From assembly GCA_030673265.1 (NCBI GenBank), contig DAOVJK010000001.1:1-46809 (forward strand): 46,809 nucleotides of DNA, read 5' to 3'. The notes beneath the pieces were generated by a model, which was given only the letters and a program-made list of their open reading frames with translations, ran no database searches and was not told the DNA's origin. Positions 3,173-37,746 of this stretch are shown piece after piece (the first letter of the stretch is position 1; every line of letters begins with the position of its first letter). The position numbers and the translations under genes are program-made. The DNA comes from Pseudomonadota bacterium. GTDB lineage: Bacteria; Desulfobacterota; Desulfobulbia; Desulfobulbales; JAGXFP01.

Positions 3173-3273
3173 TTAGGGCAACCAAGAGGCATCTGGCAAT
3201 ATCAAGCTAGCTGAGGAGATAGCGAGACCTTTGAAAATTTCAACAAAGTAGGTGCAGAAAATAAACGCGAGGG

Positions 3274-3297
3274 GACTGGTGGGGATTTCCACCAGTC
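3274..3297 (-). terminator. possible terminator hairpin downstream of serC
   Basis: 9-bp stem gactggtgg / ccaccagtc with a 6-nt loop, about 20 nt beyond the serC stop. The trailing T-rich tract on the minus strand is only moderate. Confidence 0.3.
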
Positions 3298-3317
3298 TTT
3301 ACCTCGTTATGATGTTA

Positions 3318-22275: not shown

Positions 22276-23118
22276 CTAAAAATGAATATGCTTAACCATA
22301 CTAATTATAATTGAAACTACCAACATTGAGCCGGTAACAACTACAAAGATGCCAAATACCGTTGACAACCTTTTCAGCCAGGCTTCAGGAGCGCGGCATT
22401 GCGTCAACTTGTCGAGATCGCCTGAGGCCATCAGTTGATCATACTCTCTAGGCCGTTCATGCTTCAGCTCATCAACGGTAATCGATCCAACAAAAATCAC
22501 CGGGTCTAAAGGAAATTTGTCTGGACGCAAATGGGTGTTATAGAAATGAATAGTGAAAATAAAGCCTGACGCAAGCAACGCTTCATCACTGTGAATAATC
22601 GTGGCAATGTTTAACCCCCATCCCGGTAGGAACTTCGAAAAAATCTCGGGAAACCATAGGGCCAGACCAGAGGAACCGATTACTGCAATACCCCAGAATA
22701 CCGCCATGAAATCGAACTTCTCCCAGTAGGTCCAATGCCCGTAATATGGGCGTGGTCCGCCAAAAAACCATTTAAACGTGGCAATCATCTCCTTTAAATC
22801 ATTTAAATTCGGCACGAGCCCTTCAGCATCGAAGATAAAGCCGAGTAATGATTTTCCCGATTCCTTCCATTTTGTATACAGTAATATCATGGTCAGGAAA
22901 AAATAGAAGAATGTAACAATGGCAAAGAAACGGTGTAAAGCCCCAAGGACCGTGAAACCGCCGGTCATGAAAGCAATCCATTGCGCCCAGTCTTCCATGG
23001 CAAATTTGAGAGCCATTCCGGTTACCGCCAAGGTAAGAAAACTAACGATAACTAAAAGATGGGTCAAGCGTTGAAAAACTGAAAATCTTTCTATATAGAG
23101 TGGTTCGCATTTATGCAT
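22276..23118 (-). CDS. membrane b-type cytochrome (FdnI/HydC-like, Ni_hydr_CYTB-type)
   Basis: Polytopic ORF with the typical start of this family (RFSVFQRLTHLLVIVSF) and conserved His in separate helices (LHRFFAIV, IIHSDEAL, HFYNTH). I prefer the ATG at 23118 (MHKCEP) because AAGGAAGGA lies 9 nt upstream. Confidence 0.75.
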   Translation of the reverse strand: MHKCEPLYIERFSVFQRLTHLLVIVSFLTLAVTGMALKFAMEDWAQWIAFMTGGFTVLGALHRFFAIVTFFYFFLTMILLYTKWKESGKSLLGFIFDAEGLVPNLNDLKEMIATFKWFFGGPRPYYGHWTYWEKFDFMAVFWGIAVIGSSGLALWFPEIFSKFLPGWGLNIATIIHSDEALLASGFIFTIHFYNTHLRPDKFPLDPVIFVGSITVDELKHERPREYDQLMASGDLDKLTQCRAPEAWLKRLSTVFGIFVVVTGSMLVVSIIISMVKHIHF

Positions 23119-23181
23119 TTTGGTCGATCCTTCCTTATGGGTTCTTAATCTGATCAATCCGAAATTTAATTAGTCCTTGTC

Positions 23182-24423
23182 TTATTTCTTGGCCGTAATT
23201 TCTTTAAATTTTTCAATTAGTGCTCGAGGTACCCATAGAATGGTGTGCAAGCCAAAGAAAGCAAAGGTGCCGACCAGCAGTCCGGTCATAGCCCAGAAAG
23301 TATAGAAAAGATATGGATATTTTTCGCGGTCGTTATGGGTCGCATGGGTAAGATAAGTGGTAAAGCTTTGATTGGCATTTGGGTGACACTTGGCACAGGT
23401 CTCAACAATATTTACTGCATTAATCATAGATTTTTCACTTTTTATCGGCATGATATTATGTGAGCCGTGGCAGTCAGAACATTTGGCCGTTTTCTCTCCG
23501 CCCCAGAGCATGGAAGCCCGGCCATGATAAGTCTCTAAATAGGTCTCCGACTCATGTGCATGGCAGTTACCGCATTGATCGGCAATGATCAGGCGGAAAT
23601 CCTTGCGGTCCACCTGGGCTATGGTATGTGAATTATGGCAATCTATACAGATGGGCCGCTTCTTGTCGGTAGTGGAATCGGGATTACCGTGCACCGATAG
23701 TTTGAACTGATCCACAATCCCGACATGACACTGGTTGCATGTATCAACAATATTATCCCGGTTTACTGTCGAGTCCGGGTTACTGGCCTTCTGGACGTTA
23801 TGGGCCGTATGGCAGCTGGTACAAACGGCAGTGACAATCAAGCCATCTACAAAAAGTCCCTTCCCGTGGATGGACATTGAATAATTTTCAATAATATTAT
23901 GCTGGTTCAGATCATGGCTCTTTGTCATTTCCGTGCCTTCACGATGACAGCGACCACAGGTGAAGGGGATGTTCAAAGGGTAGGTCGAGGCCTCTTTATT
24001 GGTCGGCGGCAGGATGTTATGCTTGGTGTGGCAGTCTTTACACCTTGGGGCCATTTTGTCATTATGATCTGAAATAGAAAGTCCGTGCGCACTGTTTTGG
24101 TATATTTCACCAATTTCGTCATGACAATTTTCACAGTTGACGGGGGACATGGGGAAAGGATGTTCATCGCCTGCCACATCGGCCTCTTCATGACAAGAGA
24201 CGCAACCATTGTCCGCATGGATGGTCCCTTTAAAAATTTCAATGTCCATAAAAAGGCTGACTGTTTCACCATTCTTTTCGGTGGTCAAATCTTCATCGCT
24301 GTGGCACTCAATACATTCATCGTTGGTCAGAGCCAATGAATTGCCTGGCAGAAGAAAAGAGACTGCGAATAATGCAAAAAAGAACAGTACGATTCTTGAA
24401 AGATATTTCGTGATATTGTCCAT
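23182..24423 (-). CDS. membrane-anchored multihaem c-type cytochrome (11 CxxCH motifs)
   Basis: CxxCH motifs counted by eye: CIECH, CVSCH, CENCH, CKDCH, CGRCH, CTSCH, CNQCH, CIDCH, CGNCH, CSDCH, CAKCH. There is an N-terminal signal/anchor and a C-terminal hydrophobic helix (FWAMTGLLVGTFAFFGL). I prefer the ATG at 24423 (MDNITKY) with an AAGAGGGG RBS. Confidence 0.9.
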   Translation of the reverse strand: MDNITKYLSRIVLFFFALFAVSFLLPGNSLALTNDECIECHSDEDLTTEKNGETVSLFMDIEIFKGTIHADNGCVSCHEEADVAGDEHPFPMSPVNCENCHDEIGEIYQNSAHGLSISDHNDKMAPRCKDCHTKHNILPPTNKEASTYPLNIPFTCGRCHREGTEMTKSHDLNQHNIIENYSMSIHGKGLFVDGLIVTAVCTSCHTAHNVQKASNPDSTVNRDNIVDTCNQCHVGIVDQFKLSVHGNPDSTTDKKRPICIDCHNSHTIAQVDRKDFRLIIADQCGNCHAHESETYLETYHGRASMLWGGEKTAKCSDCHGSHNIMPIKSEKSMINAVNIVETCAKCHPNANQSFTTYLTHATHNDREKYPYLFYTFWAMTGLLVGTFAFFGLHTILWVPRALIEKFKEITAKK

Positions 24424-24560
24424 AAACCCCTCTTGTTTTCGATAAAACATGAATTCTGGATAACGGTTCGGAAAAGTCTTATATCTCTTGATATAATAAA
24501 TGAATGCCCATTCAGTGAAGTACTTTTGCTAAATAATCAATAAATTGTCAATTAAAAAAA

Positions 24561-24650: not shown

Positions 24651-25688
24651 TCAGTTTTCGCCGCCAGTGATCATATAGAGGAGATAATGATACGAGGAAA
24701 GGACGGCAAGGATGGTCAACAGGATTAGAGACATATCGACCGCTATCTTACGGTAGTGTCTGACCGGAGTAACCAGATCAGAACGGCGGCCCAAAACTTC
24801 AGTCAGCGCCGTTGAAATCCCGAAAAAAGTCCCGCAGATCAAAGTACAATAGATCGCCAGCCCGATGTAACTGTATTCCGGCTTAATAATACAGAAAGGG
24901 CAGCGATGAAAAGGCATGGCATAGATATATGATGAGATAACCGAGGTGATCACCGCCAGGGCCAAGCCAAAAAACCATAACCAGCCCGTCGCATAAAGAA
25001 AAGAGAGGCTGCTCTGCACCCTTTTCCCCGACAATTTCAATCTCGGTATCCGGTTATTCATCAGCAGGGCAAGACCGAGCAGAACCGCGATGGTTCCGTA
25101 ATAGAGCCAAAGCATGATGGTTTGGGGCAGGCTGCCCAACAGATTGCCCCCCTCCCCCGCCGCATCACTGAACACCACAGCACAGCAAGAGGTTATTATG
25201 TCAGGATCAAGATTGGCGATATAAAGGGTCTGGAAAATAATATCAGCCAGGATGAAGGGGATCAGGAGCAACAGGTAGAGATATTTAATTCTGACCAGAG
25301 GGTAGACCTCGGAGCGGATATCTATTTGATGTAGGAGTATCCAGAAACCGTAGAGGAAAAAACCAGCCAGTTTGAGATAGAGGGTCGGCAAACCGAATTC
25401 ATTGGCCAACAGGGAACCGGTAGCGCACATCGCCCCGGCTATCACCTGACTGTAGCTGTCTGCCGCCAGGATAAAAAGCAGGAGGCTTAATCCTTGGACT
25501 GCCAAGGCAAATTCGATCAGGGTCGAAGCCAGCCAGGTCTCGTTTTCGAGACTGATCTGGAGATTGCTGTCGCTGGCCTGGTTCCAGTAGCGAAGAACCC
25601 GCACCCCGGTCCGGGCCGCGTTGGCTATCAGAAAGAGGACGACAATACTGCACAGAACCAGGCTGAGACTCCAGGCGCTAAGAAACAT
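24651..25688 (-). CDS. polytopic membrane protein with conserved-looking Cys pairs, function unknown
   Basis: 345-aa ORF with roughly 8-10 hydrophobic helices and the motifs ITSCCAVVF and FHRCPFCIIKPEY. It overlaps the upstream ABC ATPase gene by 11 nt. Confidence 0.65.
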   Translation of the reverse strand: MFLSAWSLSLVLCSIVVLFLIANAARTGVRVLRYWNQASDSNLQISLENETWLASTLIEFALAVQGLSLLLFILAADSYSQVIAGAMCATGSLLANEFGLPTLYLKLAGFFLYGFWILLHQIDIRSEVYPLVRIKYLYLLLLIPFILADIIFQTLYIANLDPDIITSCCAVVFSDAAGEGGNLLGSLPQTIMLWLYYGTIAVLLGLALLMNNRIPRLKLSGKRVQSSLSFLYATGWLWFFGLALAVITSVISSYIYAMPFHRCPFCIIKPEYSYIGLAIYCTLICGTFFGISTALTEVLGRRSDLVTPVRHYRKIAVDMSLILLTILAVLSSYHYLLYMITGGEN

Positions 25689-26355
25689 CTACCCTGCCAT
25701 CCGTGACGTCTATTATTCGGTCTATTTCGGGCTTTTCGGTGACCAGCGGATCGTGGGAGGCAATAATAATGGTCTTGCCGGTTTTTTTCAGATCGACCAT
25801 TATCTGCAAAAACTCCTTACTGAGCTTTGTGTCTAGATGGGCGGTGGGTTCATCTGCGAGGATGATGGGCTGATCGTTGATCAGGGCGCGGGCAATCGCC
25901 ACCCTCTGCAATTCGCCGCCTGAGATCTGCCCGGCTGGGAAGTTTTGCCGATGACTGATACCGAGCCGCTCGATTAAAACCTTGGCCCGCATGCGTCTTT
26001 CTTCGGGTGAAACCCCGAGAGGTAAAAGCGGTAAAGAGATATTCTCCTGCACGGTCAGGTCGGGCAGGATATTGAATTGCTGGAAGATAAAGCCGATGGT
26101 CTGGCGGCGATGGATAGTCATGAACCGGTCCGGTAGGCGGGACAGCTGTTTGCCGGCCACGGTGGCCCGGCCACTGGTCGGCGGCAATATGCAACCAATT
26201 ATCGATAACAGGGTTGACTTACCGGAACCACTGGCCCCGCGCAGACAGACCATACTGTTCGCCTCTATAACCAGATCGACATCATAAAGGGCCTGAACCT
26301 CGTTGGGCTGGCCTTGATTATATATTTTATTGACGGACTCCAGTTCGATCATCAT
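25678..26355 (-). CDS. ABC transporter ATP-binding protein (MacB/LolD-like)
   Basis: Walker A GASGSGKST, signature ISGGELQRVAIARA and Walker B IILADEPT. The start is probably at MMIELESVNKIY (26355) rather than the ORF-track 26388. Confidence 0.85.
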   Translation of the reverse strand: MMIELESVNKIYNQGQPNEVQALYDVDLVIEANSMVCLRGASGSGKSTLLSIIGCILPPTSGRATVAGKQLSRLPDRFMTIHRRQTIGFIFQQFNILPDLTVQENISLPLLPLGVSPEERRMRAKVLIERLGISHRQNFPAGQISGGELQRVAIARALINDQPIILADEPTAHLDTKLSKEFLQIMVDLKKTGKTIIIASHDPLVTEKPEIDRIIDVTDGRVDVS

Positions 26356-26436
26356 AGCTTGTCTTATGGTCTCGTAAAAAGTACCCAAAGGGCTTTGTAG
26401 TATAGAGATGGCTTAGTAGCTATCTGCGAAGCCATC

Positions 26437-27621
26437 TTATTTTACCGCCGCATCTGGAGATATCGTTGAGCACCGCCAGGCCGGTATTACCGTCGCTGCC
26501 AAGTACGGCAGCACCGACAAGGTGAAAATTAACAGTACATCCCCCGCTGCGAAGACCGGCAGGATTTTTAACGATGGATGGATCACCGACCAGCCCAACA
26601 ACACCGGTCTAAACAATGACCCCTCCAGAAATAAAACATGAAAATATGCGGCCGTGCAGCCGATTAGAAAAGCCAGCCCGGCCACCGTCAAGCTTTCCCA
26701 GTAACGCAGGGTCAGAATATCGGTGGTCTGCCAGCCCAGCACCTTAAGGATCCCGATCTCCCTTTTTTCTTCAACGGATAGGCCGGATGCCTTATCCCAG
26801 GCGAGAATAGCAAAGGCGGCCAAAGCGGCCAGCAGACAGATTGAGGCAAAACCACTGCGCCAACCGAAAACGACCTTGTACGTTTTGAGGATTTGCGGCC
26901 GGGTCAGCACCCTGGTGTCCGGCAGTCTGGCGGCGATCTTTTTGGCAATGGTGCTAATTTCGTTGGGGTTGGTTACATAAACAAGGAGATCAGTTGCAAG
27001 ATTGTCTGGAATGGCGAATAAGTCACGGGCATCATCAAGACTGGTAACCAATAGATCGCCAGTCAACAGGTTGGTGCTCTCGGCAAAAATACCGGTTATC
27101 CGGAGGGTCTTCAGGGACAGATCCGGCCTAAACAACGAGAAGGTGCGGCGTCCGGCCAGGTTCATATTGGCTGCCACTTCCCGACCCAGAGCAGCCCCAC
27201 CCGGTTCTGCATCCGGGTAACTGCCATCAATAACCATCTCCAGTCGTTGGCCTTCGGGCATGGCATTTCGCTCGACACCCATGACCGTGTAATTGGCCCC
27301 GGAGGTTTCATCAAAATAATAACCCCATATCCTGGGCACGGCAGCTCTGATCCCGAAGACACCGTCTAAACGGTTGAGATAAGAAAGGGGGATAGATTCC
27401 TGGCGACCAGCGGACATTTTTTGAACGACAATCTCGGGAGTTTTTGCCAGCATGGTCTCGGCGATACTGGTAAGGCTGCTGGTCAGGATCTGAAAAGAGG
27501 CGACCAGAAAGATAACACCGGCGAACACCGTTATGATCCCCAGATTCTTCATTTTGCGCCGCCACAGGCTAGACAGAGCATAATCAAGAAGATTCAGATG
27601 TTTTTCGAAGGCTGGGCTCAT
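26437..27621 (-). CDS. ABC transporter permease, FtsX/MacB type
   Basis: The topology is one N-terminal TM, a roughly 200-aa periplasmic segment and three C-terminal TMs. I place the start at MSPAFEK (27621), 5 nt after the upstream stop. Confidence 0.8.
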   Translation of the reverse strand: MSPAFEKHLNLLDYALSSLWRRKMKNLGIITVFAGVIFLVASFQILTSSLTSIAETMLAKTPEIVVQKMSAGRQESIPLSYLNRLDGVFGIRAAVPRIWGYYFDETSGANYTVMGVERNAMPEGQRLEMVIDGSYPDAEPGGAALGREVAANMNLAGRRTFSLFRPDLSLKTLRITGIFAESTNLLTGDLLVTSLDDARDLFAIPDNLATDLLVYVTNPNEISTIAKKIAARLPDTRVLTRPQILKTYKVVFGWRSGFASICLLAALAAFAILAWDKASGLSVEEKREIGILKVLGWQTTDILTLRYWESLTVAGLAFLIGCTAAYFHVLFLEGSLFRPVLLGWSVIHPSLKILPVFAAGDVLLIFTLSVLPYLAATVIPAWRCSTISPDAAVK

Positions 27622-27626
27622 AAATA

Positions 27627-27911
27627 TTAATCCTGCGGGGGGGCCCAAAAAGAACCGGTTGGGAAATGCTCCATGGCCCCAAGATGGTCCATGAACGGGG
27701 CGATGGGATCGGAAACAGCAGGATGCCTGGTATAACGAGCCTCGGTCGCCAGACAGAGATCGGTCAAACCCAGCCCAGCGGTGACTATGTCATTTAGGTG
27801 AGCGGCTGGGCGCTGCACGGTTTCCTGTTGAAAACGGACATGGGCATATAGCGCTGTATCAAGGATAAGCAGGAAGAGTATTATTAAAACTAAGCTGTGG
27901 GTAGGACGCAT
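27627..27911 (-). CDS. small N-terminally anchored/secreted hypothetical protein (94 aa)
   Basis: N-terminal hydrophobic helix LVLIILFLLILDTALYA. It is packed 7 nt after nosL and 5 nt before the permease gene, which supports it being real. Confidence 0.5.
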   Translation of the reverse strand: MRPTHSLVLIILFLLILDTALYAHVRFQQETVQRPAAHLNDIVTAGLGLTDLCLATEARYTRHPAVSDPIAPFMDHLGAMEHFPTGSFWAPPQD

Positions 27912-27918
27912 TAGACCC

Positions 27919-28437
27919 CTATTTTTCCATGCTCTTCATACGGTTGCCAACTCGGAGCCGCTCAATAATTTCAACGGTTATCTCGTCAAAGACCAAAATC
28001 TGCTGGCCGTGGTGATCAGTCAAGAACGATTCGGCGGCGGTTTTACTTGAGAAAGGAATCAGCTCATGGCCCATAGGCCCGTGAACATCGCTGCCAACAA
28101 CAAAGAATGCCTGTCGAGCATCCAGCCATTTAAGGGAATAATAATCTTTGGCCCAGATCTCGCTTATCTTAGCCTGAGCTTGGCCGTTGTATGCGGCAGG
28201 ATTATGATAATAGGCCATCATATCTTTGACCCCATCAAAGCTGAAAACAATAGAATCGTCATAACGTATCTGGGTTATCCAGACATCGTATTTAGCCACA
28301 AACATCCCGCAGACCGGGCAGCGGGTGTCGGGCTTGACTTTGTCAAGAGGGGCGGCTGCCGCCGTTGATATTAAAAGAAATGGTGTGAAGACAAGGAGAA
28401 AGAGTGCGAAGCTCTTGTTTATCAATAAAGATTTCAC
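27919..28437 (-). CDS. nosL: NosL-family protein (copper-chaperone-like accessory protein)
   Basis: 172-aa ORF with a signal peptide, then the characteristic RCPVCGMFVAKYDVW...FDGVKDMMAYY...GSDVHGPMGHELIPF pattern of the NosL family (PF05573-type). Confidence 0.8.
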   Translation of the reverse strand: MKSLLINKSFALFLLVFTPFLLISTAAAAPLDKVKPDTRCPVCGMFVAKYDVWITQIRYDDSIVFSFDGVKDMMAYYHNPAAYNGQAQAKISEIWAKDYYSLKWLDARQAFFVVGSDVHGPMGHELIPFSSKTAAESFLTDHHGQQILVFDEITVEIIERLRVGNRMKSMEK

Positions 28438-28498: not shown

Positions 28499-28999
28499 TC
28501 ACTTGTTCAGCCATTCGCCACCCAGGATCTCATCAAGCTCTGGCTCGGTTACTCCTCCCAGAATGGCACCTTTAATCATATGGCTGGAATTGAGGATTAT
28601 CGTCTGGGGTTCTACCTTTACATTAAACAATTTAGATATTTTAAGACCATAATCTATAGCAACCGGGAAAGGAATATTAAGATCAGCAGCGAACTTTTTT
28701 ACCTGGGCTTGATCTGTTGTGGTCGTAATATAGAGAATCATAAGCCCCTGATCTTTATGATTATTGTAATAATCATTAAAAATCGAAGTGTCGGCCTTGC
28801 AGAATTTACAATCGGTAATAAAAAAGCGGATCACAACCGGTTGGTTTTGCAGCGCTGACAGCTGGACTTTGTTGCCGGTCAGGTCTTCGAGCAGAAAATC
28901 GGGGGCCGGGTCACCTATCTTCAACTTGGTTGGGGCTCCCGAAGAGCAACCACTCAAAGCAAAAAGGATAATCAGAACTGTTACCGTGATTTTTTTCAT
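28499..28999 (-). CDS. TlpA/ResA-like thiol:disulfide oxidoreductase lipoprotein (thioredoxin fold)
   Basis: Lipobox LSGC at the N-terminus, a redoxin pattern GDPAPDFLLEDLTGNKV and the active-site CKFC. It overlaps the upstream ATPase gene by 4 nt. Confidence 0.8.
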   Translation of the reverse strand: MKKITVTVLIILFALSGCSSGAPTKLKIGDPAPDFLLEDLTGNKVQLSALQNQPVVIRFFITDCKFCKADTSIFNDYYNNHKDQGLMILYITTTTDQAQVKKFAADLNIPFPVAIDYGLKISKLFNVKVEPQTIILNSSHMIKGAILGGVTEPELDEILGGEWLNK

Positions 29000-29709
29000 G
29001 CCGACTCGTTTTTAGCGGTTGTCTCGGAAAGTTGCCCGCTTTTCATCAAAAATGTTCTGGGGTTATGTTGGGTCGAAACAAGGCTGCTGTTATGGGTAAC
29101 AACAAGGAAAGTCGTTTTTTGCTCGGTATTGTAATGCCGAAAAATATCAAGAATCTCCCTTTCGGTTTCTTCATCAAGATCCCCAGTTGGTTCATCAGCA
29201 AGAATAATGCTGGGGCGATTTATAAAGGCTCGAGCAATGGCTACCCGTCGCTGCTGACCGCCGGAAAGATGGGCTGGAAAAGCGTTCTCCTTATCTGCCA
29301 AACCAACCTGGTCCAGGAGTTCTCTGGCCAACGGGATGTTTTCTGCGGGGTTGGTGCCGGCATCAGCAAAAGATAATGGCAAGAGGACATTTTCAATGGC
29401 GGTCAGAGTCGGAATCAAGCTGCCGAACTGAAAAATAAAACCTATCGTCTGGTTGCGCATGATCGCAAGTTGCGCCTCGCTCTGCTGCCAACAATCGACA
29501 TCATTTATAATGATGCTTCCCGCATCAGGACGGGCCAAGCCGCCAATTAAACTGAGAAGTGTCGTCTTCCCAGAACCAGAGTGTCCGAGAATAGCGACAA
29601 AAGCTCCGGCCTCTACAGAAAAGGAAGCATTATCAACGGCCCGCAGGTCTTGGCCTTCCTGGTGGTAAGTCTTAACGAGATTATTACATTTAATTATCAT
29701 TATAGCCAC
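28996..29709 (-). CDS. ABC transporter ATP-binding protein (MacB/LolD-like), first gene of the minus-strand operon
   Basis: Walker A GHSGSGKTT, signature LSGGQQRRVAIARA and Walker B IILADEPTGDLD. Confidence 0.85.
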   Translation of the reverse strand: MAIMIIKCNNLVKTYHQEGQDLRAVDNASFSVEAGAFVAILGHSGSGKTTLLSLIGGLARPDAGSIIINDVDCWQQSEAQLAIMRNQTIGFIFQFGSLIPTLTAIENVLLPLSFADAGTNPAENIPLARELLDQVGLADKENAFPAHLSGGQQRRVAIARAFINRPSIILADEPTGDLDEETEREILDIFRHYNTEQKTTFLVVTHNSSLVSTQHNPRTFLMKSGQLSETTAKNESA

Positions 29710-30091
29710 TTAACAATATAGATTTAATCAGCAAAAAGGACCGCTGGTTTTTAGAATTTTTTAGATTTTAAGTCTAAGAATAGTTTCAGAAATTCACCAT
29801 GAACAAATCATTAACAATTACTAGCTGATAGAATCGATTTGTGCAAGCTGCTTTTCTGTGACAAAACAGGATGTGGTTTAGCAACATCAAACAAGAATCT
29901 ATTCCCTAACAGTTGCATTTTTTTAGTGACACGATGTGGTATTTACTCTAAAATATCATTTATTGTTTTTCATTAAACTTTCTTTTCAAGATTAAGATCT
30001 TGAAATAGCTTCTTTTTCTACATCCAGCAAATTATCAATTATTTCCTTTTTTCACGGAATGCATAAAAAAAACAATTTTACCTTTTTTTTC

Positions 30092-30108
30092 ATACCACAG
30101 TGTGGTAT
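30092..30108. promoter_or_regulatory. perfect palindrome ATACCACA-g-TGTGGTAT, a candidate operator overlapping an extended -10-like element upstream of the 30250 gene
   Basis: The 8+1+8 palindrome is read directly from the sequence. Its right half is TGTGgTATAT. It sits about 140 nt upstream of the start codon in a 520-bp AT-rich divergent intergenic region. A further half-site TGTGGTAT lies at 29935-29942. Confidence 0.4.
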
Positions 30109-30249
30109 ATCACTTCACAAGCTTTATGAATCAGGGGTTGTTTCTTAAAGCAAGATTACTGTTTTAAGTCCGCAGTGGGTCGGCAACAGGGGAACGAAGA
30201 CTATTCGTTATCCTGTTACTGAACAATTTAATTGAAGAAAGGAGGAAGC

Positions 30250-31422
30250 ATGAAGATTTCAAAAAGGTTATTGGTTGGCTCTATGCTGACAGGCGGTATC
30301 GCCTTAGGTGTGTTTTGTCTCAACATGCCGGTAGATGTATCCGCCATGGGTAACAAACCTGCCGCAGAAAAAGCTCCGGCAGCCGCCGGCGCCACCTACG
30401 ACGCTACTTTATATGTAGCCGGCATGGGCGGCCACTTCGCCAAAGCCGTCGCCACCATCGATCCCTCCGCTGACCAGCCGATCAAGATCAGCAGCCTGAC
30501 CAAGGTCGATATCGGTACCCGTCCGACCCATCCGACTCATGATGCTCGGATCGACAACAACGACCGCAACACCATGTTCTGGTCGACCTACAAGATCGAC
30601 AAGGAAGCCGGCGGCGTTCATGTTGGTAAAACCGACCTGAGAACCGGTGAGATCATCCAGGATGTGGTCGTTGATGTACCGGCCAAAGCAACCAACACCA
30701 AATCAATGTACTGCGCTTCCGGTCAGTCAAAGGATCATTACATTCCGATCACTATGACCAGCAAGGGCTACATCGACGTATTCACCAAGTCAGATCTGAA
30801 GCGTGTTCAGCGGATATTCCTGGAAGGCACCGATGCGGATATCGGCGCTCCTTATAAGTTCCTGCACGGTAATACTAATACAGCAATGACCAAATTGATT
30901 ATTATTGCCAATATCGCCGACAAGGACCACGGTAAGACCACCGGTAAAGTTGAGCTTGTTGAATTGGATCTTAACGAGTTTACCAAGGGTAATGTCAAAG
31001 TTCTGAATCGGAACACTATTGCCGGTACCCCGAAGAGTATTACCTTCCGGGCCTACTACTCGCCTGATGGCTCCATGATTGCCGCTTCCGGTGGTGACGT
31101 CATGTTCCTGATCGACGCCAAAACCCTTAAGGTCATCGACACTGAGCCCGTCAGCAGCATCGATCACAATCACGATGCGATTTTCACCCCGGACGGCAAG
31201 TACATCATCGCCACTTCCCGCTGGAAGCAGGTCACAGGCGAATGTGAAAACCCCAAAGCTCCTAAAGCCGGCGAATTCACCATGGACGGCGTTCTCAAGC
31301 TTTATGATGTAGAGAAAAAACGATTCATTGGCGAACACACCTCTGCCTGCCTTACCTGTCACGATGAGGAAGGTGTAGAAGAGCACGCCATCCTTTGCGG
31401 TCTGGATGCCAACTTCAAGTAG
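30250..31422 (+). CDS. secreted His-rich, beta-rich (propeller-like?) protein with a C-terminal CxxCH haem-c motif; function unknown
   Basis: The ATG at 30250 (MKISKRLL) is preceded by AAAGGAGGA. A Sec-type signal ends in VSA-MG. About 320 residues show short beta-strand-like repeats and 9-10 His (GGHF, THPTHD, VHVG, DHY, LHG, DHG, DHNHD). The C-terminus reads SACLTCHDEEGVEEH, and a strong terminator follows. Confidence 0.8.
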   Translation: MKISKRLLVGSMLTGGIALGVFCLNMPVDVSAMGNKPAAEKAPAAAGATYDATLYVAGMGGHFAKAVATIDPSADQPIKISSLTKVDIGTRPTHPTHDARIDNNDRNTMFWSTYKIDKEAGGVHVGKTDLRTGEIIQDVVVDVPAKATNTKSMYCASGQSKDHYIPITMTSKGYIDVFTKSDLKRVQRIFLEGTDADIGAPYKFLHGNTNTAMTKLIIIANIADKDHGKTTGKVELVELDLNEFTKGNVKVLNRNTIAGTPKSITFRAYYSPDGSMIAASGGDVMFLIDAKTLKVIDTEPVSSIDHNHDAIFTPDGKYIIATSRWKQVTGECENPKAPKAGEFTMDGVLKLYDVEKKRFIGEHTSACLTCHDEEGVEEHAILCGLDANFK

Positions 31423-31601: not shown

Positions 31602-32798
31602 ATGACAAAAGAATCTCTGAAGATATATACCCTTGGCACCATTGCCTGGAAAAGTGTCACCCGAAAAATATTCAGAAATATCATCTTGGTTCTGGCAGTA
31701 GCCATGCTGGTCTCCCTACTGGTCTTCGCTCTCCTCTTCAATCGGGCCATTAAAGAGGATATCAAGGAAGCCACTCAAAAACTCGGGGCCGACATTGTGC
31801 TTGTCCCGGTTGATGCCGTTGAACTGGCCGAGGAATTCATCCTGGAAAGCAATGAAAAGACTTTCTATATGGACGAATTTGTCTATGAATCGATGAAAGA
31901 ACTGCCCATCGTTGAGCAGGCCACTTTTCATATTTACCTCGACACCCTTGAGTCGGAGTGCTGCAGCATCCTCGAAGGCCAGGTTGTGGCCATCGACCAG
32001 GCTACCGATTTTGTGGTCAAGCCCTGGCTGGATACCGACAGGGAATTAAAGGCAGGAGAAGTGTACATTGGCAGTTACGTCCACGAGTTCCTCGGCTTGA
32101 TCAATACCGCCACTCTTTTCGGAAAAGACATCAATGTGGTCGGTCATCTAAGGGAAACCGGCACCGGCCTTGATCTTGGCATATTCATGCGGAAAGAGGA
32201 TCTGGATGCGACTACCACTGAAGCAACCGGCCAGCGCAAAGAGAACGAAATCTCCATTGTTTTCCTCAAACTGAAAGAGGGAGTAGATCTTGACGATGCC
32301 GTCGCCATGATAAGGAACGTAAATCCTTCGGTCGGCCTGATGACCAGGGGCAGTATCGGCATAGATGTTAGATCAACCTTGAACGACATCATGCGGATAT
32401 TCACCCTAACCATCCTGATAGCCTCCATTCTGTCAGTATTACTAGCCTGGTCCACTTTTACGGCCATGACCAATGAGAGAAAAAGAGAGGTGGGTATCCT
32501 GCAGGCCATCGGCGCCCGTCGCAGTCACATTATCAAAATGTTCCTCGGTGAAGCCGCAATCATCAGTCTGCTTGGTGGAATTATTGGGGTGTTTGCCGGG
32601 CACCTGCTGCTTAATTACCTGGCCGCCGACTTCAATCTGCTCAGTCGCTTGGGAGATATATCCATAACCTCTCCCGTCAGTATATTATTAAGTTTCTTGG
32701 CGATAGTCATGGGTGGTGGCGCCTGTCTCCTTGGCGCCGTCCTACCAGTCTATCGTCTAGCCAGACTGGAACCATTGTTGGCACTGAAAGAGGACTAG
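31602..32798 (+). CDS. ABC transporter permease, FtsX/MacB type (second copy)
   Basis: 398-aa ORF with one N-terminal TM, a roughly 230-aa periplasmic segment and three C-terminal TMs. It has the conserved RKREVGILQAIGA pattern of FtsX-family permeases. Confidence 0.8.
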   Translation: MTKESLKIYTLGTIAWKSVTRKIFRNIILVLAVAMLVSLLVFALLFNRAIKEDIKEATQKLGADIVLVPVDAVELAEEFILESNEKTFYMDEFVYESMKELPIVEQATFHIYLDTLESECCSILEGQVVAIDQATDFVVKPWLDTDRELKAGEVYIGSYVHEFLGLINTATLFGKDINVVGHLRETGTGLDLGIFMRKEDLDATTTEATGQRKENEISIVFLKLKEGVDLDDAVAMIRNVNPSVGLMTRGSIGIDVRSTLNDIMRIFTLTILIASILSVLLAWSTFTAMTNERKREVGILQAIGARRSHIIKMFLGEAAIISLLGGIIGVFAGHLLLNYLAADFNLLSRLGDISITSPVSILLSFLAIVMGGGACLLGAVLPVYRLARLEPLLALKED

Positions 32799-32893: not shown

Positions 32894-34288
32894 TTATTTT
32901 TTGACTTTTATATCGTAAGCTTTGATCTTATTTAAAAGCGACGGGAAACTCAATTCCAGCATTTGCGCCGCGCGGGAGCGATTGCCACCAGTTGCTGTCA
33001 ATGCCCGGCTAATGAGATTCTTTTCCCAGATCCTTTTGGCTTTTTTAAGTGAAAAACCGGTCTGTTCATCAAAACAGATTGAACCATTATCAAGCTGTTC
33101 GGCATGGCCTGTCAGGACTTCAATTCCCAATAGCTCATCGTTGCTTAAAACCATCGCCCTTTCGATAATATTTTCCAGTTCACGGACATTTCCTGGCCAT
33201 TGCTGCCCGATAAGTCCGGCCATCGCCTTGGCAGCAACCCCTTTTACCGATAAATCCAGTTTGTCGTTGAAGCGCTCAATGAAATAATGGCAAAGCGGCG
33301 GAATATCTTCGGGATGGTCCCTGAGTGGGGGCATTTTTATGGGCATAACATTCAGCCGGTAGAACAGATCCTCGCGAAAAAGCCCTTGCTTGATCGCATC
33401 CTCCAGGTTTTTTGAAGTAGCGGCGACAACTCTGACATCTACCTTGCGAGTCACAGTTGAGCCAACCGGTCGGATTTCATTTTCCTGGAGAACCCGCAGG
33501 AGTTTAACTTGGAGTGACAAAGGCAGTTCTCCAATCTCATCAAGAAAGATGGTGCCGCCATCCGCTTCTTCAAAAAGCCCCTTATGGATCCGGTCGGCGC
33601 CGGTAAAAGCCCCTTTGACATGACCGAATAATTCACTCTCGAGAAGTGCTTCTGGAATACTGCCGCAATTTACCGGGATCAGGGGCTGGTCTCGGCGGGG
33701 GCTGGCAAAATGAATGCCCCTGGCAACCAGTTCCTTGCCGGTTCCTGACTCCCCGGTGATCAAGACCGTCGTGTTATAACGAGCAACCTTGGTTGCCAGT
33801 TCAAAAACTTGCTTAAGAGCCTGACTTTTGCCGACCATCCCGGCAAAATTACTCTCACCTTCCAAATAGCGTAACTGGTCACGCAACCGTCTGTTTTCCC
33901 GACGCAGACTTTCTCGCTCTTCGGCCTTTCTTAAAGCCATGACAACTTCATCCACCTTGAACGGCTTGGAGATGAAATCATAGGCCCCGCAGTTCATGGC
34001 CTCCAGGGCCAAATCGATAGTCCCGTAGGCCGACATCATGATCACCGTCGCGTCACCCCGACAGTCAACAGAGGCTCGGAGAAAATCCATGCCATTCATG
34101 TTGGGCATCTTGACATCACAAAGAATAAAATCGAATTCATTTTCTCCCAATAACTCAATGGCTTTCAAACCATCTGCGGCCGTAACAACCGTATAACCGG
34201 TGCCTTCGGTCATAATTTGCAACATATGGCGCATATTCTGTTCGTCGTCAATAATCAGTAACTTGCGAATCGTTTGTTTTTTTGACAT
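32894..34288 (-). CDS. sigma-54-dependent response regulator (NtrC family)
   Basis: Receiver domain (LLIIDDE; [10 protein letters not shown]). The AAA+ sigma-54 interaction domain shows [14 protein letters not shown] and FLDEIG. A C-terminal HTH is present. The likely start is the ATG at 34288 (MSKKQ). Confidence 0.9.
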
Positions 34289-34303
34289 TTTCCCAACCAA
34301 CAA

Positions 34304-35866
34304 TCATCTCTTGGTATTTTCAGGCATGGCTGAAAGCGGTAAAGTAATGGTAATGGTAGTGCCTTCACTGTCGCTTGACGCCTTGACCCTGCCTGCCATA
34401 TTATCAACAATAGTAAAACAGATCGATAACCCCAGACCCGTACCCTCACCCGGCTCTTTGGTTGTGTAGAAAGGATCAAAGATATTCTCAAGGTTGCCGG
34501 ACGCAATGCCTGGGCCATTATCAATAAATTGAATTTGAATAAACTCCGCCCTATCCTTTTTAAGATTAACGGTTCTGATCGTAATTATACCTTCTTCCTG
34601 GCAATCATCACTGGCGCTTTTAATGGCATCAGCGGCGTTCATCAATAGATTAAGAAAAACCTGATTGAGTTGACTGCTTGTCCCGACTACAAAATTATCT
34701 TTGGCCGCATATTCGCTGGCAATCGTAATCCCCGCCATCATCGGTTGAACGGTGCAAATTTCCACCACTTCTTTAATCGCTTCATGGACAGAAACTGCAC
34801 ATTGCTGTTCATCCGGCGGCTGCCGGGCAAAATCAAGCAGTTGTCTGATAATAGTGTTGATACGATGCACCTCTATTTCAGCCCGAACGATGAAGTCTTT
34901 CTTTTGTTCATCAGAGACAGAGGCTTTCTGTAAGAGATCGAGGTAGCCGATAATGATCCCGATAGGATTACCAATTTCATGGGCAATACCGGCCGAAAGA
35001 CGTCCGACTGATGCCAGTTTTTCGGACCTAATCATTTCCTGTTGGGTTTTTCGCAACTTGAGGTTGGCTTCTTTAAGATCGGCTATGGTTTCCTGTAATC
35101 GACTTCTATCCCGATTTATCCGAGCCAGCATTTTATTAAGGGTAAGTGAGAGTCGGTTGAATTCACCATCTTTTGTTTCCGGCAGAAAAGTAAATTCATC
35201 GTCATCGCGGAACTCTTCGGCAGTATTTACCAGACGATTGATAGGTTTAAGCAGCCTTCGGTAAAGCTGATAAAACCCCAACATTACCAAGGCTAGCAGG
35301 TTAAATATAAAGTATACAAAAAACATGCGCTGGCTGTTGCGAAGTGATTGATAAATGTTATCTAAATCAAGGGCAACGGCGATGGCCCCGACAACTTTTC
35401 CCGCAGCAATAATTGGCCGCGAGACCAACATGTTTTTTCGGTCTGGCCATAAAATGCCCCTGGTTGTACCCGCAAATGAGGACGATGATTTACCTGATTC
35501 AATGGACTGGCGCGCATCCCTGGCAAGGATTTCGATAGAATCACAATCCGGACCCGCGCTAAAGACATTGTCTCCCCCGCTGTTTATAACCACGAGGCAG
35601 TTGGCCGAACTCTCATCCATGGTCATCGTTAATTGCGCAGGAGACAATCCGGAATCAGATAAGCCTGCAATAAGGACCGGGCCGGAGACAGCAAGCAGTG
35701 AATTCCCGGTTTCAAGGCGAACTTTAAGCAATTGCTGGCGCGCCGCACCGACCATAACCAGATCAACCAATAGCATTGCCGCTGCCAGAATAAGCAGCAA
35801 ATTCAGGATAATGCTTATTTTAAGTCCCTTTGGATACATAAACCGAACCGGAATAATGAGCGACAA
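34304..35866 (-). CDS. sensor histidine kinase (2 TM, HAMP, HisKA, HATPase_c)
   Basis: H-box AGIAHEIGNPIG, N-box LLMNAADA and G-boxes DNGPGI and GTGLGLS. It sits directly upstream of the NtrC-type regulator gene. Confidence 0.85.
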   Translation of the reverse strand: MSLIIPVRFMYPKGLKISIILNLLLILAAAMLLVDLVMVGAARQQLLKVRLETGNSLLAVSGPVLIAGLSDSGLSPAQLTMTMDESSANCLVVINSGGDNVFSAGPDCDSIEILARDARQSIESGKSSSSFAGTTRGILWPDRKNMLVSRPIIAAGKVVGAIAVALDLDNIYQSLRNSQRMFFVYFIFNLLALVMLGFYQLYRRLLKPINRLVNTAEEFRDDDEFTFLPETKDGEFNRLSLTLNKMLARINRDRSRLQETIADLKEANLKLRKTQQEMIRSEKLASVGRLSAGIAHEIGNPIGIIIGYLDLLQKASVSDEQKKDFIVRAEIEVHRINTIIRQLLDFARQPPDEQQCAVSVHEAIKEVVEICTVQPMMAGITIASEYAAKDNFVVGTSSQLNQVFLNLLMNAADAIKSASDDCQEEGIITIRTVNLKKDRAEFIQIQFIDNGPGIASGNLENIFDPFYTTKEPGEGTGLGLSICFTIVDNMAGRVKASSDSEGTTITITLPLSAMPENTKR

Positions 35867-36034: not shown

Positions 36035-36100
36035 GACTATGCCGGTTCACGAAGTAAAATGATTCACTCGTAACTTTGATCATGATAACGGAGAATAGTG

Positions 36101-36682
36101 ATGGAATCTTTTGACGAATTATTGGAAAAATCAACCGCGATTCATGGCCATGTCTGTGCCGGACAGGTCATTGGGGTCAGGATGGCCATGCTGGGTCTGA
36201 ATGAAATCGGTATTTCGGAGCCACGTGGGCTTGATCGCAAGAAATTTTATGTCCTGGTCGAGATTGATCGCTGTGCAACCGATGCTATTCAGACTGTCAC
36301 CGGTTGTAGTCTTGGCAAGCGCTCCCTTAAATGGCTTGATTTCGGGGTCATGGCCGCCACTTTCGTAAATCTCGAGGATGACCGGGCTGTCAGGATTACC
36401 GCCAGAGAGGAATCCCGTGAAATCTCGAAAAAGTATTGCCCGGAAATCGAAGATAAATACAAGCGCCAATTGGAAGCCTATCGCATAATGGCCGAGGATG
36501 AACTCTTTACCATCCAAAAGGTCCGGGTAAATATTCCGGCAGAAGATATGCCGGGACGCCCCATGAAAAGAGTTCAGTGTGAAAAATGCGGTGATTGGGT
36601 CCAGGACTGCCGTGAAATAGAGAAAGACGGACTAACCATCTGCCGTTCCTGTGCGCAGGGCCGCTACTTTGAATTGATCTAA
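36101..36682 (+). CDS. FmdE-family protein with a C-terminal zinc ribbon
   Basis: HGHVCAGQVIGVRM and DRCATDAIQTVTGCSLGKR match the FmdE-domain pattern. The C-terminus reads CEKCGDW...CRSC. A GGAGA RBS precedes the ATG at 36101. Confidence 0.75.
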   Translation: MESFDELLEKSTAIHGHVCAGQVIGVRMAMLGLNEIGISEPRGLDRKKFYVLVEIDRCATDAIQTVTGCSLGKRSLKWLDFGVMAATFVNLEDDRAVRITAREESREISKKYCPEIEDKYKRQLEAYRIMAEDELFTIQKVRVNIPAEDMPGRPMKRVQCEKCGDWVQDCREIEKDGLTICRSCAQGRYFELI

Positions 36683-36717
36683 GATACCAGCAAAGATCTG
36701 CTCAGGAGAACAATAAA

Positions 36718-37746
36718 TTGCATAAAACGATTCCGATTGATGAGGCAGTGGGCATGGTCTTGCCCCATGATATTACAGAAATCAACAAGGTTGATGGTTT
36801 CAAGGGCCGGGCTTTCAGGAAGGGCCATATCATCCAGGCTGAAGATATCCCCCGCCTGAAGAATCTGGGCAAAGAGAATATCTATGTCCTGGAACTCAGT
36901 CCGGGCGATATTCATGAGAACGAAGCGGCTGATTTGCTGGCCGCTGCTCTGGCCGGTCCCGGCACCTCGATCAGCGGTGAACCCGTTGAGGGCAAGCTGA
37001 ATATAGTCGCGGCGACAACGGGCTTACTTAAGGTAGACACTGACGCTCTGTATCAATTCAACCTGCTGGGCGAGGTGATGTGCGCCACCCTCCACAACAA
37101 CACCATGGTCGAAAAGGGCTTACAGGTCGGCGCTACCAGGCTTATTCCTTTGGTCGGCAAGAGAACGATGGTCAATAAAGCCTGTAAAATTGCCAGCTCC
37201 ACCGATGGGGTTATCTCGGTCCGTAAGTTGCCCAGCCTCAAAGCCGGCCTGGTCATTACCGGCAACGAGGTTTTTCATGGCCGGATCAAGGACGCCTTCG
37301 AACCGGTCCTCCGTGAGAAATTAACCGCCCTTGGTTCAGAGGTAATTGAGGTTCGTTTTGCCCCTGACGATATCCCGACAATTGCTGATCAGATTAAAGG
37401 TTGTCTGGATTCTGGTGCTGAAATCATCATTACCAGCGGCGGCATGTCGGTCGATCCCGATGATGTCACCCGCCAGGGCATAAAAAAGGCCGGCGCCACC
37501 GACATTGTCTACGGAACTCCGGTGTTACCAGGGGCCATGTTCCTGGTCGGCAAGATCGGCAAGATCCCGGTATTGGGCCTTCCGGCCTGCGGAATGTTTC
37601 ATCGGACCACCGTCTTCGACCTGATTCTGCCCAGGGTAATGCTTGGCGAAAAAATTGACCGTGAAGAACTGGCCAGGATGGACCACGGCGGGCTGTGCCG
37701 ACAATGTAAAATATGCAAATATCCGATCTGTGATTTCGGACGCTAA
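36718..37746 (+). CDS. molybdopterin-binding protein (MoeA-like N-terminal region plus MoCF-biosynthesis domain)
   Basis: TTG start with AGGAGA 8 nt upstream. The MoCF domain pattern is VITGNEV...IIITSGGMSVDPDDVT. Confidence 0.7.
   Translation: MHKTIPIDEAVGMVLPHDITEINKVDGFKGRAFRKGHIIQAEDIPRLKNLGKENIYVLELSPGDIHENEAADLLAAALAGPGTSISGEPVEGKLNIVAATTGLLKVDTDALYQFNLLGEVMCATLHNNTMVEKGLQVGATRLIPLVGKRTMVNKACKIASSTDGVISVRKLPSLKAGLVITGNEVFHGRIKDAFEPVLREKLTALGSEVIEVRFAPDDIPTIADQIKGCLDSGAEIIITSGGMSVDPDDVTRQGIKKAGATDIVYGTPVLPGAMFLVGKIGKIPVLGLPACGMFHRTTVFDLILPRVMLGEKIDREELARMDHGGLCRQCKICKYPICDFGR

Follow-up and report, generated by a model that had tools for sequence, protein, structure and literature searches.

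A family of predicted six-bladed beta-propellers with a putative haem c site, encoded with copper chaperones and FtsX-type ABC transporters in Desulfobulbales

Introduction

To our knowledge, few copper-propeller enzymes are known, namely N2O reductase (NosZ), thiocyanate dehydrogenase (TcDH) and the recently reported clade III NosZ, and each of them changed the understanding of a biogeochemical step. We analysed a stretch of DNA of 46,809 nucleotides (hereafter the window; contig DAOVJK010000001.1) from a Pseudomonadota bacterium of the order Desulfobulbales, and in it a gene for a secreted beta-propeller protein that carries a CxxCH motif and lies in a cluster with genes for a NosL-family copper chaperone and FtsX-type ATP-binding cassette (ABC) transporters. 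Here we report the predicted fold, the conservation and the gene neighbourhood of this protein, and compare it with the described systems.

TcDH and clade I NosZ have a Tat leader (PMC5328954, PMC8457098). The listed ligands of the CuA centre include two Cys, two His and one Met, and the NosL chaperone of Shewanella denitrificans (SdNosL) binds copper through Cys62, Met64 and Met145 (PMC8457098). The epsilonproteobacterial (Wolinella-type) NosZ has a C-terminal haem c domain (PMC4794192), and clade III NosZ has been aligned together with clades I and II in later papers (PMC13274427, PMC13477213). The TcDH operon encodes two permeases, two ATPases, two hypothetical proteins and a sigma-54 two-component system (PMC5328954), and the electron acceptor of TcDH is a c-type cytochrome (PMC9456337). 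Finally, MccA of Wolinella succinogenes has been cited as a copper-containing sulfite reductase (PMC9250108).

Results

The propeller gene and the predicted fold of its product

We located the gene and the relevant parts of its product at the following positions of the window:

30250-31422, plus strand: propeller gene, 390-aa secreted protein with a C-terminal CxxCH (open reading frame, ribosome-binding site, AlphaFold2 model, 895 homologues)
30250-30345, plus strand: predicted Sec signal peptide, residues 1-32, with probable cleavage after VSA (sequence reading, model helix)
31348-31362, plus strand: CLTCH (C367, C370, H371), putative covalent haem c attachment site (conservation, AlphaFold2 model)
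30538-31398, plus strand: span of the invariant hub residues (conservation; placement on inner (A) strands and B-C loops derived from DSSP), including R324 and D346 and the seven positions below
30538-30549, plus strand: H97/D98/R100, invariant hub residues
30712-30720, plus strand: C155/S157, invariant hub residues
30754-30756, plus strand: M169, invariant hub residue
30865-30867, plus strand: H206, invariant hub residue
31048-31050, plus strand: R267, invariant hub residue
31171-31176, plus strand: H308/D309, invariant hub residues
31396-31398, plus strand: C383, hub residue

The open reading frame as listed starts from a TTG (30232-31422, plus strand, 396 aa). An AAGGAGG ribosome-binding site lies 4-10 nt 5' of the ATG at 30250, and its position directly before this codon makes 30250-31422, with 390 aa, the likely product, in agreement with the coordinates given in the initial annotation of this DNA. 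The N-terminus (MKISKRLLVGSMLTGGIALGVFCLNMPVDVSA, followed by MG) reads as a Sec-type leader with KR instead of RR, that is, without a twin arginine. In the AlphaFold2 model the leader is helical at residues 6-24, and residues 1-34 have a predicted local distance difference test score (pLDDT) below 50; the Sec signal that had been annotated agrees with the sequence and with the model. The protein contains 6 Cys and 12 His (positions 62, 94, 97, 124, 163, 206, 227, 306, 308, 363, 371 and 379), and every His motif named in the initial annotation was found in the 390-aa sequence. A motif scan of the protein detected no CuA-type CxxxCxxxH, as had also been stated there, and the chain ends 7 residues beyond the Cys of the closing strand, without a cupredoxin CuA domain.

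The AlphaFold2 model was built with 75 homologues and its strands were read off the DSSP string. It had a pLDDT of 88.4 and a predicted template modelling score of 0.84, with 292 residues at a pLDDT of at least 90, and was all-beta except for the leader helix and one short helix at residues 367-374. We counted 23 long strands and one irregular strand (96-102), and the DSSP string indicates that they fit six four-stranded A-B-C-D blades, in which the C-terminal strand serves as strand A of blade I and closes the propeller. The strands were assigned as follows (residue numbers):

Blade I: A 382-389 (the C-terminal strand), B 50-58, C 62-70, D 78-87
Blade II: A 96-102, B 108-113, C 122-129, D 135-141
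Blade III: A 154-159, B 163-168, C 174-179, D 185-190
Blade IV: A 202-209, B 215-223, C 230-240, D 251-258
Blade V: A 265-270, B 276-281, C 284-289, D 295-300
Blade VI: A 305-312, B 318-328, C 343-353, D 358-365

All of the 50 matches listed by Foldseek against the PDB were propellers of generic kinds (WD40, YncE-like and S-layer), with TM-scores of 0.4-0.6. This pattern of propellers only, with mediocre scores against seven-bladed WD40 folds, agrees with six blades. The secreted beta-propeller of the initial annotation was therefore upheld by the AlphaFold2 and Foldseek runs, and its seven blades were replaced by six according to the strand count.

Sequence searches with the propeller protein gave only sub-threshold single-blade matches in Pfam and NCBIfam (THOC3 propeller, WD40, PD40 and hydrazine synthase beta), and only one-blade matches among PDB sequences when phmmer and the family profile were used (hydrazine synthase beta, WD40 proteins and a putative lactonase). 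With regard to NosZ and TcDH, the protein had no nos_propeller Pfam match at E<=1, the family profile recovered neither a NosZ chain nor a TcDH chain from the PDB at E<=10, and the two enzymes were not among the 50 Foldseek matches listed. Finally, when the family alignment was compared with S. meliloti NosZ (sequence taken from pSymA), hhalign returned a probability of 1.6% and aligned the signal peptide only. A kinship with NosZ or TcDH, the two enzymes named in the initial annotation, found support in none of these searches.

Six homologues of 720-950 aa (P0126, P0128, P0129, P0135, P0136 and P0156) were permuted tandem fusions, in which a C-terminal half (blades IV-VI with the CxxCH) is followed by a full propeller with its own CxxCH and then by an N-terminal half (blades I-III), giving two six-bladed units; some of the tandem-fusion members carry a lipobox or fn3 domains. 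The split into three and three blades agrees with a six-bladed fold, and the fusions hint that the native unit is a dimer.

Extent of the family and conservation of the CxxCH motif

We detected 895 relatives at E<=1e-3 in a large protein database, all of them named 'hypothetical' and originating from Desulfobulbales-type metagenome-assembled genomes, and an exhaustive search of representatives at 50% identity gave 49 clusters at E<1e-30. Among species-representative genomes, 172 encoded the protein. Nearly all of these belonged to Desulfurivibrionaceae, Desulfobulbaceae and Desulfocapsaceae, with a few Nitrospirota, and among the carriers are cultured strains such as Desulfogranum mediterraneum DSM 13871 and Hydrosulfovibrio ferrireducens CB1MN. 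The family is covered by neither a Pfam nor an NCBIfam model. Some distant members have fn3, caspase or Cu_amine_oxidN1-type (cell-wall-type) domains fused to the propeller.

The protein has a single CxxCH (CLTCH, residues 367-371), which was kept in 120 out of 120 listed homologues, in 32 out of the 34 distant cluster representatives checked, and in all propeller reading frames of the fetched loci (165/165); the two exceptions among the full-length homologues checked were very distant. In P0158 and P0176, a second CxxCH was inserted a few residues after the first, in the same loop. Shuffles of the protein yield a CxxCH in 0.24% of cases, a figure that would by itself be only suggestive; it is the conservation that gives the motif its meaning, and the lone C-terminal CxxCH of the initial annotation turned out to be essentially invariant. 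In the model it lies in the helix at 367-374, which connects the outermost blade VI strand with the innermost one of blade I. D-to-A connections of propellers lie on the 'top' face, and the CxxCH connection would occupy such a top-face position according to propeller topology. The protein thus combines a conserved CxxCH with Sec export, as expected for a c-type cytochrome, and a multihaem cytochrome encoded in the same window, together with the Sec-type leader, adds support for haem. We consider it very likely that the motif binds haem c covalently.

Conserved residues at the propeller hub

We followed the conservation of the hub through 120 close and about 30 distant homologues as well as 80 copies encoded in genomes. 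In the main clade, M59, H62, H94, H97, D98, R100, H124, C155, S157, Q159, M169, H206, R267, H308, D309, R324, D346 and C383 were essentially invariant. The core that was kept down to approximately 30% identity comprised H62, H97, D98, R100, C155, S157, M169, H206, F266, R267, H308, D309, R324, D346, C367, C370, H371 and C383 (the last nearly invariant), and strictly invariant over the same range were H97, D98, C155, S157, M169, H206, R267, H308 and R324. The hub set, including M59, H62, H94, R100, H124, Q159, D309 and C383, was identical in the genome-locus copies checked, with NosL nearby or not.

Among the His residues, H62, H97, H206, H308 and mostly H124 were found family-wide, joined by Cys155, Cys383 and Met169, while H94, H227 and H379 were clade-specific (as was C332) and H163, H306 and H363 were not conserved. 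The His set emphasised in the initial annotation therefore stood in part: several members are invariant and map to inner strands or top-face loops, but not all 12 are kept, and the presence of two Cys and a Met argues against a His-only ligand set of the CuZ or trinuclear type.

A conserved residue starts each inner strand of the propeller (C383 in blade I, H97/D98 in II, C155 in III, H206 in IV, R267 in V and H308/D309 in VI), and M59/H62, H124, M169, R324 and D346 were placed by DSSP in B-C loops or at strand ends of the top face, on the side of the CxxCH. The conserved residues thus appear to be concentrated round the axis beneath the putative haem and not scattered over the surface. With its three invariant Arg (100, 267 and 324) and several Asp, Ser and Gln, the hub points to a small substrate of anionic or polar character.

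Two paralogues were degenerate at the hub. P0122, a stand-alone paralogue of 390 aa (47% identical), has lost H97, C155, M169, H206, R267 and C383 and keeps the CxxCH, H62 and H308; P0139 (785 aa, fused to a Peptidase_C14 caspase) has lost H97, C155, R267, D309 and C383 and keeps the CxxCH. This joint loss argues that the hub residues are one functional unit, separable from haem binding, and the retention of the motif that the CxxCH is selected independently of the hub. In residue type, the set lost together in P0122 (two His, two Cys and one Met) equals the ligand inventory of CuA, unlike the His-only CuZ.

Copper chaperones and FtsX-type transporters encoded with the propeller

The neighbouring genes of the window were annotated as follows:

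31602-32798, plus strand: FtsX-type (type VII ABC) permease, directly downstream of the propeller gene (Pfam FtsX, E 1.6e-23)
28996-29709, minus strand: ABC ATPase, LolD/FtsE/MacB-like and below the LolD cut-off, first gene of the divergent operon (Pfam, NCBIfam)
28499-28999, minus strand: ResA/TlpA-like thiol-disulfide oxidoreductase lipoprotein with lipobox LSGC and active site CKFC (Pfam AhpC-TSA/Redoxin; NCBIfam ResA, E 3e-27)
27919-28437, minus strand: NosL-family Cu(I) chaperone with CPVCGM and GPMG (Pfam NosL, E 3.6e-32)
27627-27911, minus strand: 94-aa membrane-anchored protein with invariant TEARYTRHP and MEHFP motifs (kept in 55 loci)
26437-27648, minus strand: second FtsX permease, with a MacB-like periplasmic core domain (Pfam FtsX and MacB_PCD; 38/48 loci)
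25678-26388, minus strand: second ABC ATPase (Pfam/NCBIfam)
24651-25688, minus strand: 345-aa polytopic membrane protein with conserved Cys motifs MCATG, SCC and HRCPFC (51 orthologues)
32894-34303, minus strand: sigma-54-dependent response regulator (Pfam; response regulator in 23/48 loci)
34304-35866, minus strand: sensor histidine kinase (Pfam; histidine kinase in 26/48 loci)
23182-24450, minus strand: multihaem cytochrome c of 422 aa with c7/c3-type motifs (Pfam)
22276-23157, minus strand: cytochrome b, Ni_hydr_CYTB/FdnI-like (Pfam)

We searched 80 genome loci with the proteins of the window cluster and took the counts from the 48 loci with enough flank; several distant representatives lay on contigs whose shortness left little of their surroundings to read. 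The downstream FtsX permease was the most constant neighbour (46 out of 48 loci, and nearly all distant-clade loci too), followed by the divergent ATPase (45), the ResA/TlpA-like redoxin (41) and NosL (39), and the complete nine-gene arrangement was present in 35 of the 48. The NosL gene lies in the divergently transcribed operon, 1.8 kb from the propeller gene; the adjacency of the two in the initial annotation thus holds as a conserved link and not as immediate neighbourhood. The CPVCGM and GPMG motifs were kept in 61 NosL orthologues, and by motif pattern alone they would match the C-x2-C-x-M and later Met of SdNosL.

In a Nitrospirota locus (L083), the propeller gene stood in a separate four-gene operon of PCuAC (Pfam PCuAC, E 1.3e-21), propeller, FtsX and ATPase. 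We then scanned metagenomes with a seed from the distant clade, which is approximately 40% identical to the window protein, and the minimal operon of chaperone, propeller, FtsX and ATPase recurred in many of its loci. PCuAC homologues with a lipobox and an H...M...HxM motif were directly beside these genes in 27 distant-clade metagenome loci, and NosL was found in three further ones. The strongest evidence for copper handling comes from the occurrence of two unrelated Cu(I) chaperone families at the same place in the operon, and it seems moderately probable that the propeller hub binds copper. TlpA and PCuAC are CuA assembly factors, and the presence of a redoxin in 41 of the 48 loci fits a thiolate-ligated copper site.

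NosD and NosY were absent from the window cluster, the ABC transporters of which were FtsX-type according to Pfam and NCBIfam and fell well short of the equivalog cut-offs for LolCDE, FtsX and MacB. The cluster also contained no membrane-fusion or outer-membrane efflux component. The 94-aa protein had no Pfam or NCBIfam match. The 345-aa membrane protein had no family match and no similarity to the VKOR-like neighbour of a paralogue, and it may work with the redoxin as a membrane thiol-redox protein or serve as a channel for metal ions. The cytochrome c and cytochrome b pair, just past the cluster, was shared by no relatives beyond the closest three (L006, L008 and L009) and is a possible electron route to the quinone pool. 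In the papers searched, we found no description of a cluster joining NosL with FtsX transporters, beta-propellers or Desulfobulbales.

Several other genes were seen near the cluster. In L016, L017, L021 and L023 (approximately positions 1450-3900 in each), a second NosL paralogue directly preceded the histidine kinase and sigma-54 regulator flanking the cluster, and could be a chaperone-like accessory sensor. In 13 of the 48 loci (including L003, L006, L009, L010, L024, L069 and L072), an FmdE-domain protein (window 36098-37746, plus strand) was encoded within a few kb of the cluster, with a MoCF_biosynth (MoaB/MogA-like) partner in 6 out of the 13; this recurrence may reflect simple synteny or a further connection to a metal cofactor. 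On one short contig with a distant homologue (L088, 2168-2672, plus strand), the order was FtsX permease, propeller, DsrH-like and DsrE-like, a possible sulfur-relay link. Upstream of the cytochrome genes, a reading frame of 738 aa (window 19392-21608, plus strand) had no Pfam match at E<=1e-3. Finally, the small reading frames after the ATPase in L115, L127, L129 and L131 had no Pfam match and look spurious.

Upstream of the propeller gene, one element stood out:

30092-30108, no strand assigned: perfect 17-bp palindrome ATACCACAGTGTGGTAT, approximately 150 bp 5' of the start codon, candidate regulator-binding site

Its half-sites were also present at 29871-29879 and 29934-29942, and 4 of the 14 near-matches to ATGTGGTWT in the window lay in the 540-bp intergenic region. 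L006, L008, L010, L072 and L078 contained TACCAC-N3-GTGGTA at -140 to -202. The palindrome is probably a site for a regulator. No sigma-54 consensus was detected 5' of the propeller gene in the window or in 26 relatives, and Rfam gave no match, whether the whole window or only the 540-bp intergenic region was searched.

Discussion

Proposed function

We tentatively favour, at a little under an even chance, a periplasmic haem c-copper propeller oxidoreductase that is matured by an ABC transporter, a chaperone and a thiol reductase. In this proposal, a Sec-exported periplasmic six-bladed propeller would carry one covalent c-type haem on its top face, attached through C367/C370/H371. Beneath the haem, at the axis, would lie a site to which every blade contributes (C383, H97/D98, C155, H206, R267 and H308/D309, with M169, H62 and H124), and this hub would bind one or two copper ions via C155, C383, H97, H206, H308 and M169. 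The Cu(I) donor would be NosL in Desulfobulbales and PCuAC in the distant clade. The ResA/TlpA-like lipoprotein, perhaps supplied by the Cys-rich membrane protein, would maintain the two hub Cys and the CxxCH in reduced form, and the FtsX-type ABC transporter would provide ATP-driven docking or insertion by the logic of NosDFY-NosL. The mature protein would then be a small oxidoreductase, with the haem relaying electrons between periplasmic cytochromes and the hub and with a sulfur or nitrogen oxyanion, or an oxide, as its substrate.

If copper is indeed bound, an enzyme seems fairly probable in preference to a shuttle. By analogy, MccA suggests that haem c beside a cysteine-ligated copper is a workable design for sulfur oxyanions. 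The initial annotation had envisaged a new enzyme architecture in which a covalent haem replaces CuA; the idea of a new architecture survives, changed to a thiolate-containing hub beside a covalent haem and coupled to an FtsX-type ABC transporter. Going further, the family could represent an unrecognised class of haem-copper enzymes with a cross-blade Cys/His/Met copper site under haem c, matured by a Cu(I) chaperone, a thiol reductase and an FtsX-type ABC mechanotransducer and performing a respiratory or detoxifying step on, e.g., sulfite, thiosulfate, polysulfide or N2O. We regard this wider reading as possible but rather doubtful.

Several points weigh against the oxidoreductase. The cofactor assignments rest on motifs and gene neighbourhood, and it was by propeller topology rules that the hub side chains were placed together and near the haem. 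C155 and C383 could merely form a disulfide, and H379, the candidate distal haem ligand, was conserved in the main clade alone. A recognisable chaperone was present in just 10 of the 22 well-flanked distant-clade loci, and L015, L022, L046, L060 and L061 had the propeller, FtsX and ATPase only. The very tight coupling to FtsX would also fit a role in transport or trafficking in place of catalysis, and a respiratory enzyme would not usually have distant members fused to fn3, caspase and Cu_amine_oxidN1-type domains. Finally, the profile search at E<=10, hhalign and the 50 Foldseek matches listed showed no similarity to any known copper propeller.

Alternative explanations

The first alternative is that the propeller is no enzyme but a periplasmic copper trafficking or homeostasis partner of the FtsX ABC transporter. 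The propeller would accept Cu(I) from NosL or PCuAC and pass it on, be it for export, for sequestration or to other cuproproteins, and would use the haem for redox sensing or Cu(I)/Cu(II) conversion. We consider this unlikely overall, although the permease and ATPase, and not redox partners, are the most constant neighbours, two chaperone families are found in the operon, and type VII ABC transporters act on periplasmic substrates. The flanking two-component system and the extra NosL paralogue in L016, L017, L021 and L023 also resemble a metal-responsive regulon. An invariant covalent haem motif, with extra haem motifs in some homologues, is however hard to explain for a shuttle, the lining formed by R100, R267, R324, D98, D309, D346, S157 and Q159 looks like a substrate pocket more than a relay for soft metals, and the cluster has no efflux membrane-fusion or outer-membrane component.

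Somewhat less probable still is a haem-only enzyme or sensor, in which the iron of the haem is ligated or surrounded by Cys, His and Met of the hub, e.g. as a His/Cys-ligated haem like those of sulfur-oxidising cytochromes, and these residues bind the substrate. The propeller would then be copper-free and the chaperones would serve another purpose. The CxxCH helix appears to share its face with all the conserved residues in the model, and the protein occurs in Desulfobulbales and Nitrospirota that cycle sulfur; cytochromes of the sulfur cycle typically show His/Cys ligation of haem, and DsrH/DsrE genes follow one distant homologue (L088). This explanation leaves the recurrence of two unrelated Cu(I) chaperones without a cause, and the degenerate paralogues, which keep the CxxCH without the hub, indicate that haem binding in itself does not require the hub.

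A minimal relative of the NosZ CuZ domain or of TcDH, with seven blades, a His-only multicopper cluster and a haem replacing CuA, is improbable. Six propeller His (62, 94, 97, 124, 206 and 308) are invariant in the main clade, NosL is in the cluster, the TcDH operon has the same inventory (PMC5328954), and epsilonproteobacterial NosZ already provides a C-terminal haem c domain (PMC4794192). Against these stand the hhalign probability of 1.6%, the absence of both enzymes from the profile search at E<=10 and from the 50 Foldseek matches listed, the six-bladed model, the four or five His kept family-wide versus an invariant pair of Cys and a Met, the FtsX-type ABC without NosD/NosY, and the Sec-type leader in place of Tat. 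Finally, a non-redox binding or scaffold propeller, in which C367, C370, H379 and C383 form a structural Zn (CCHC) site locking the closing strand, is very improbable: the C-x2-C-x8-H-x3-C pattern of the main clade and the fn3, caspase and cell-wall-type fusions of distant members would suit it, but H379 is unconserved beyond the main clade while H371 is invariant everywhere, C383 co-varies with C155 and not with C367/C370, and P0158 and P0176 have a second CxxCH inserted.

Significance

The family is widespread (172 species-level genomes and hundreds of metagenome proteins), is annotated as 'hypothetical' and has its own maturation and transport cluster. If the haem-copper oxidoreductase proved true, it would be a new copper-site design, with ligands including thiolates from separate blades and a haem in the propeller closure, and the first example of an FtsX-type ABC transporter in metalloenzyme assembly. 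It would also imply an unrecognised copper-dependent reaction in strict anaerobes from copper-scarce settings. The wider reading as an unrecognised enzyme class would add a new type of catalytic copper site and an unannotated step in anaerobic sulfur or nitrogen cycling. The proposal is directly testable in the cultured carriers D. mediterraneum DSM 13871 and H. ferrireducens CB1MN.

Comparison with known systems

The protein and NosZ are both periplasmic propellers, in NosZ with a catalytic metal at the hub and a separate one-electron entry cofactor in the same chain, and both are encoded alongside a NosL chaperone and an ATP-driven ABC machine (PMC8457098; PMC4794192). NosZ has seven blades and a seven-His CuZ, whereas the family has six blades and a hub with two Cys and a Met. 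The haem motif of the family is a 15-residue connection in the propeller closure, without a cupredoxin CuA or a separate cytochrome domain, and its cluster has an FtsX/MacB-type ABC without NosD/NosY and a ResA/TlpA-like redoxin. NosZ identity was ruled out by the homology searches, the six blades and the lack of a cupredoxin; of the accessory genes, NosL is present and NosD/NosY are absent.

TcDH resembles the proposed enzyme in having its copper site in the central propeller tunnel and in occurring in sulfur-metabolising bacteria (Thioalkalivibrio), and, compared by composition, its operon has strikingly the same inventory as the window cluster (two permeases, of FtsX type in the window, two ATPases, histidine kinase and sigma-54 response regulator). 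TcDH is however seven-bladed, Tat-exported and trinuclear, with a separate cytochrome, whereas the family is six-bladed with a Sec-type leader; TcDH identity was rejected on the absence of a PDB sequence match at E<=10, the Sec-type leader and the six blades. The clade III, 'lactonase-type' L-NosZ is said to have been reported by He et al. 2025, Nature 646:152, and it shares host phyla (Desulfobacterota and Nitrospirota) with the propeller family. We consider the two probably distinct, judged from descriptions and not from sequences, because clade III has been aligned with clades I and II whereas the family did not align with NosZ, has no Lactonase Pfam match and was never annotated as lactonase.

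MccA has two-Cys copper ligation and a NosL-like chaperone, MccL, and it resembles our proposal in placing a c-type haem next to a cysteine-ligated Cu(I) for a sulfur oxyanion substrate; it differs in being all-alpha, with eight haems and no propeller, and an FtsX ABC partner is not known for it. The CuA assembly pathway (TlpA, ScoI and PCuAC) likewise combines a thiol-disulfide oxidoreductase and a PCuAC chaperone serving a site of two Cys, two His and one Met. Its target is a cupredoxin loop (H...CxxxCxxxH..M), whereas the candidate ligands of the family come from separate blades and no Sco protein was seen.

The type VII ABC systems MacB, LolCDE and FtsEX are close to the transporters of the cluster, the window permeases of which have an FtsX domain, and in one case a MacB periplasmic core, with LolD/FtsE/MacB-like ATPases. 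FtsEX-like systems activate a periplasmic partner by mechanotransmission, and we know of no haem-propeller partner described for a type VII ABC transporter. Cytochrome cd1 nitrite reductase and quinohaemoprotein alcohol dehydrogenase share the combination of an axial catalytic cofactor with a c-type haem relay in the same chain (PMC9456337 for the quinohaemoprotein), but have eight blades, a complete cytochrome c domain, haem d1 or PQQ, and no ABC or chaperone cluster. Placed outside NosZ and TcDH by homology, blade number, ligand set, electron-entry cofactor and transporter class, the proteins described here are a large unannotated family with a dedicated gene cluster, whose closest functional analogues are the copper-propeller enzymes.

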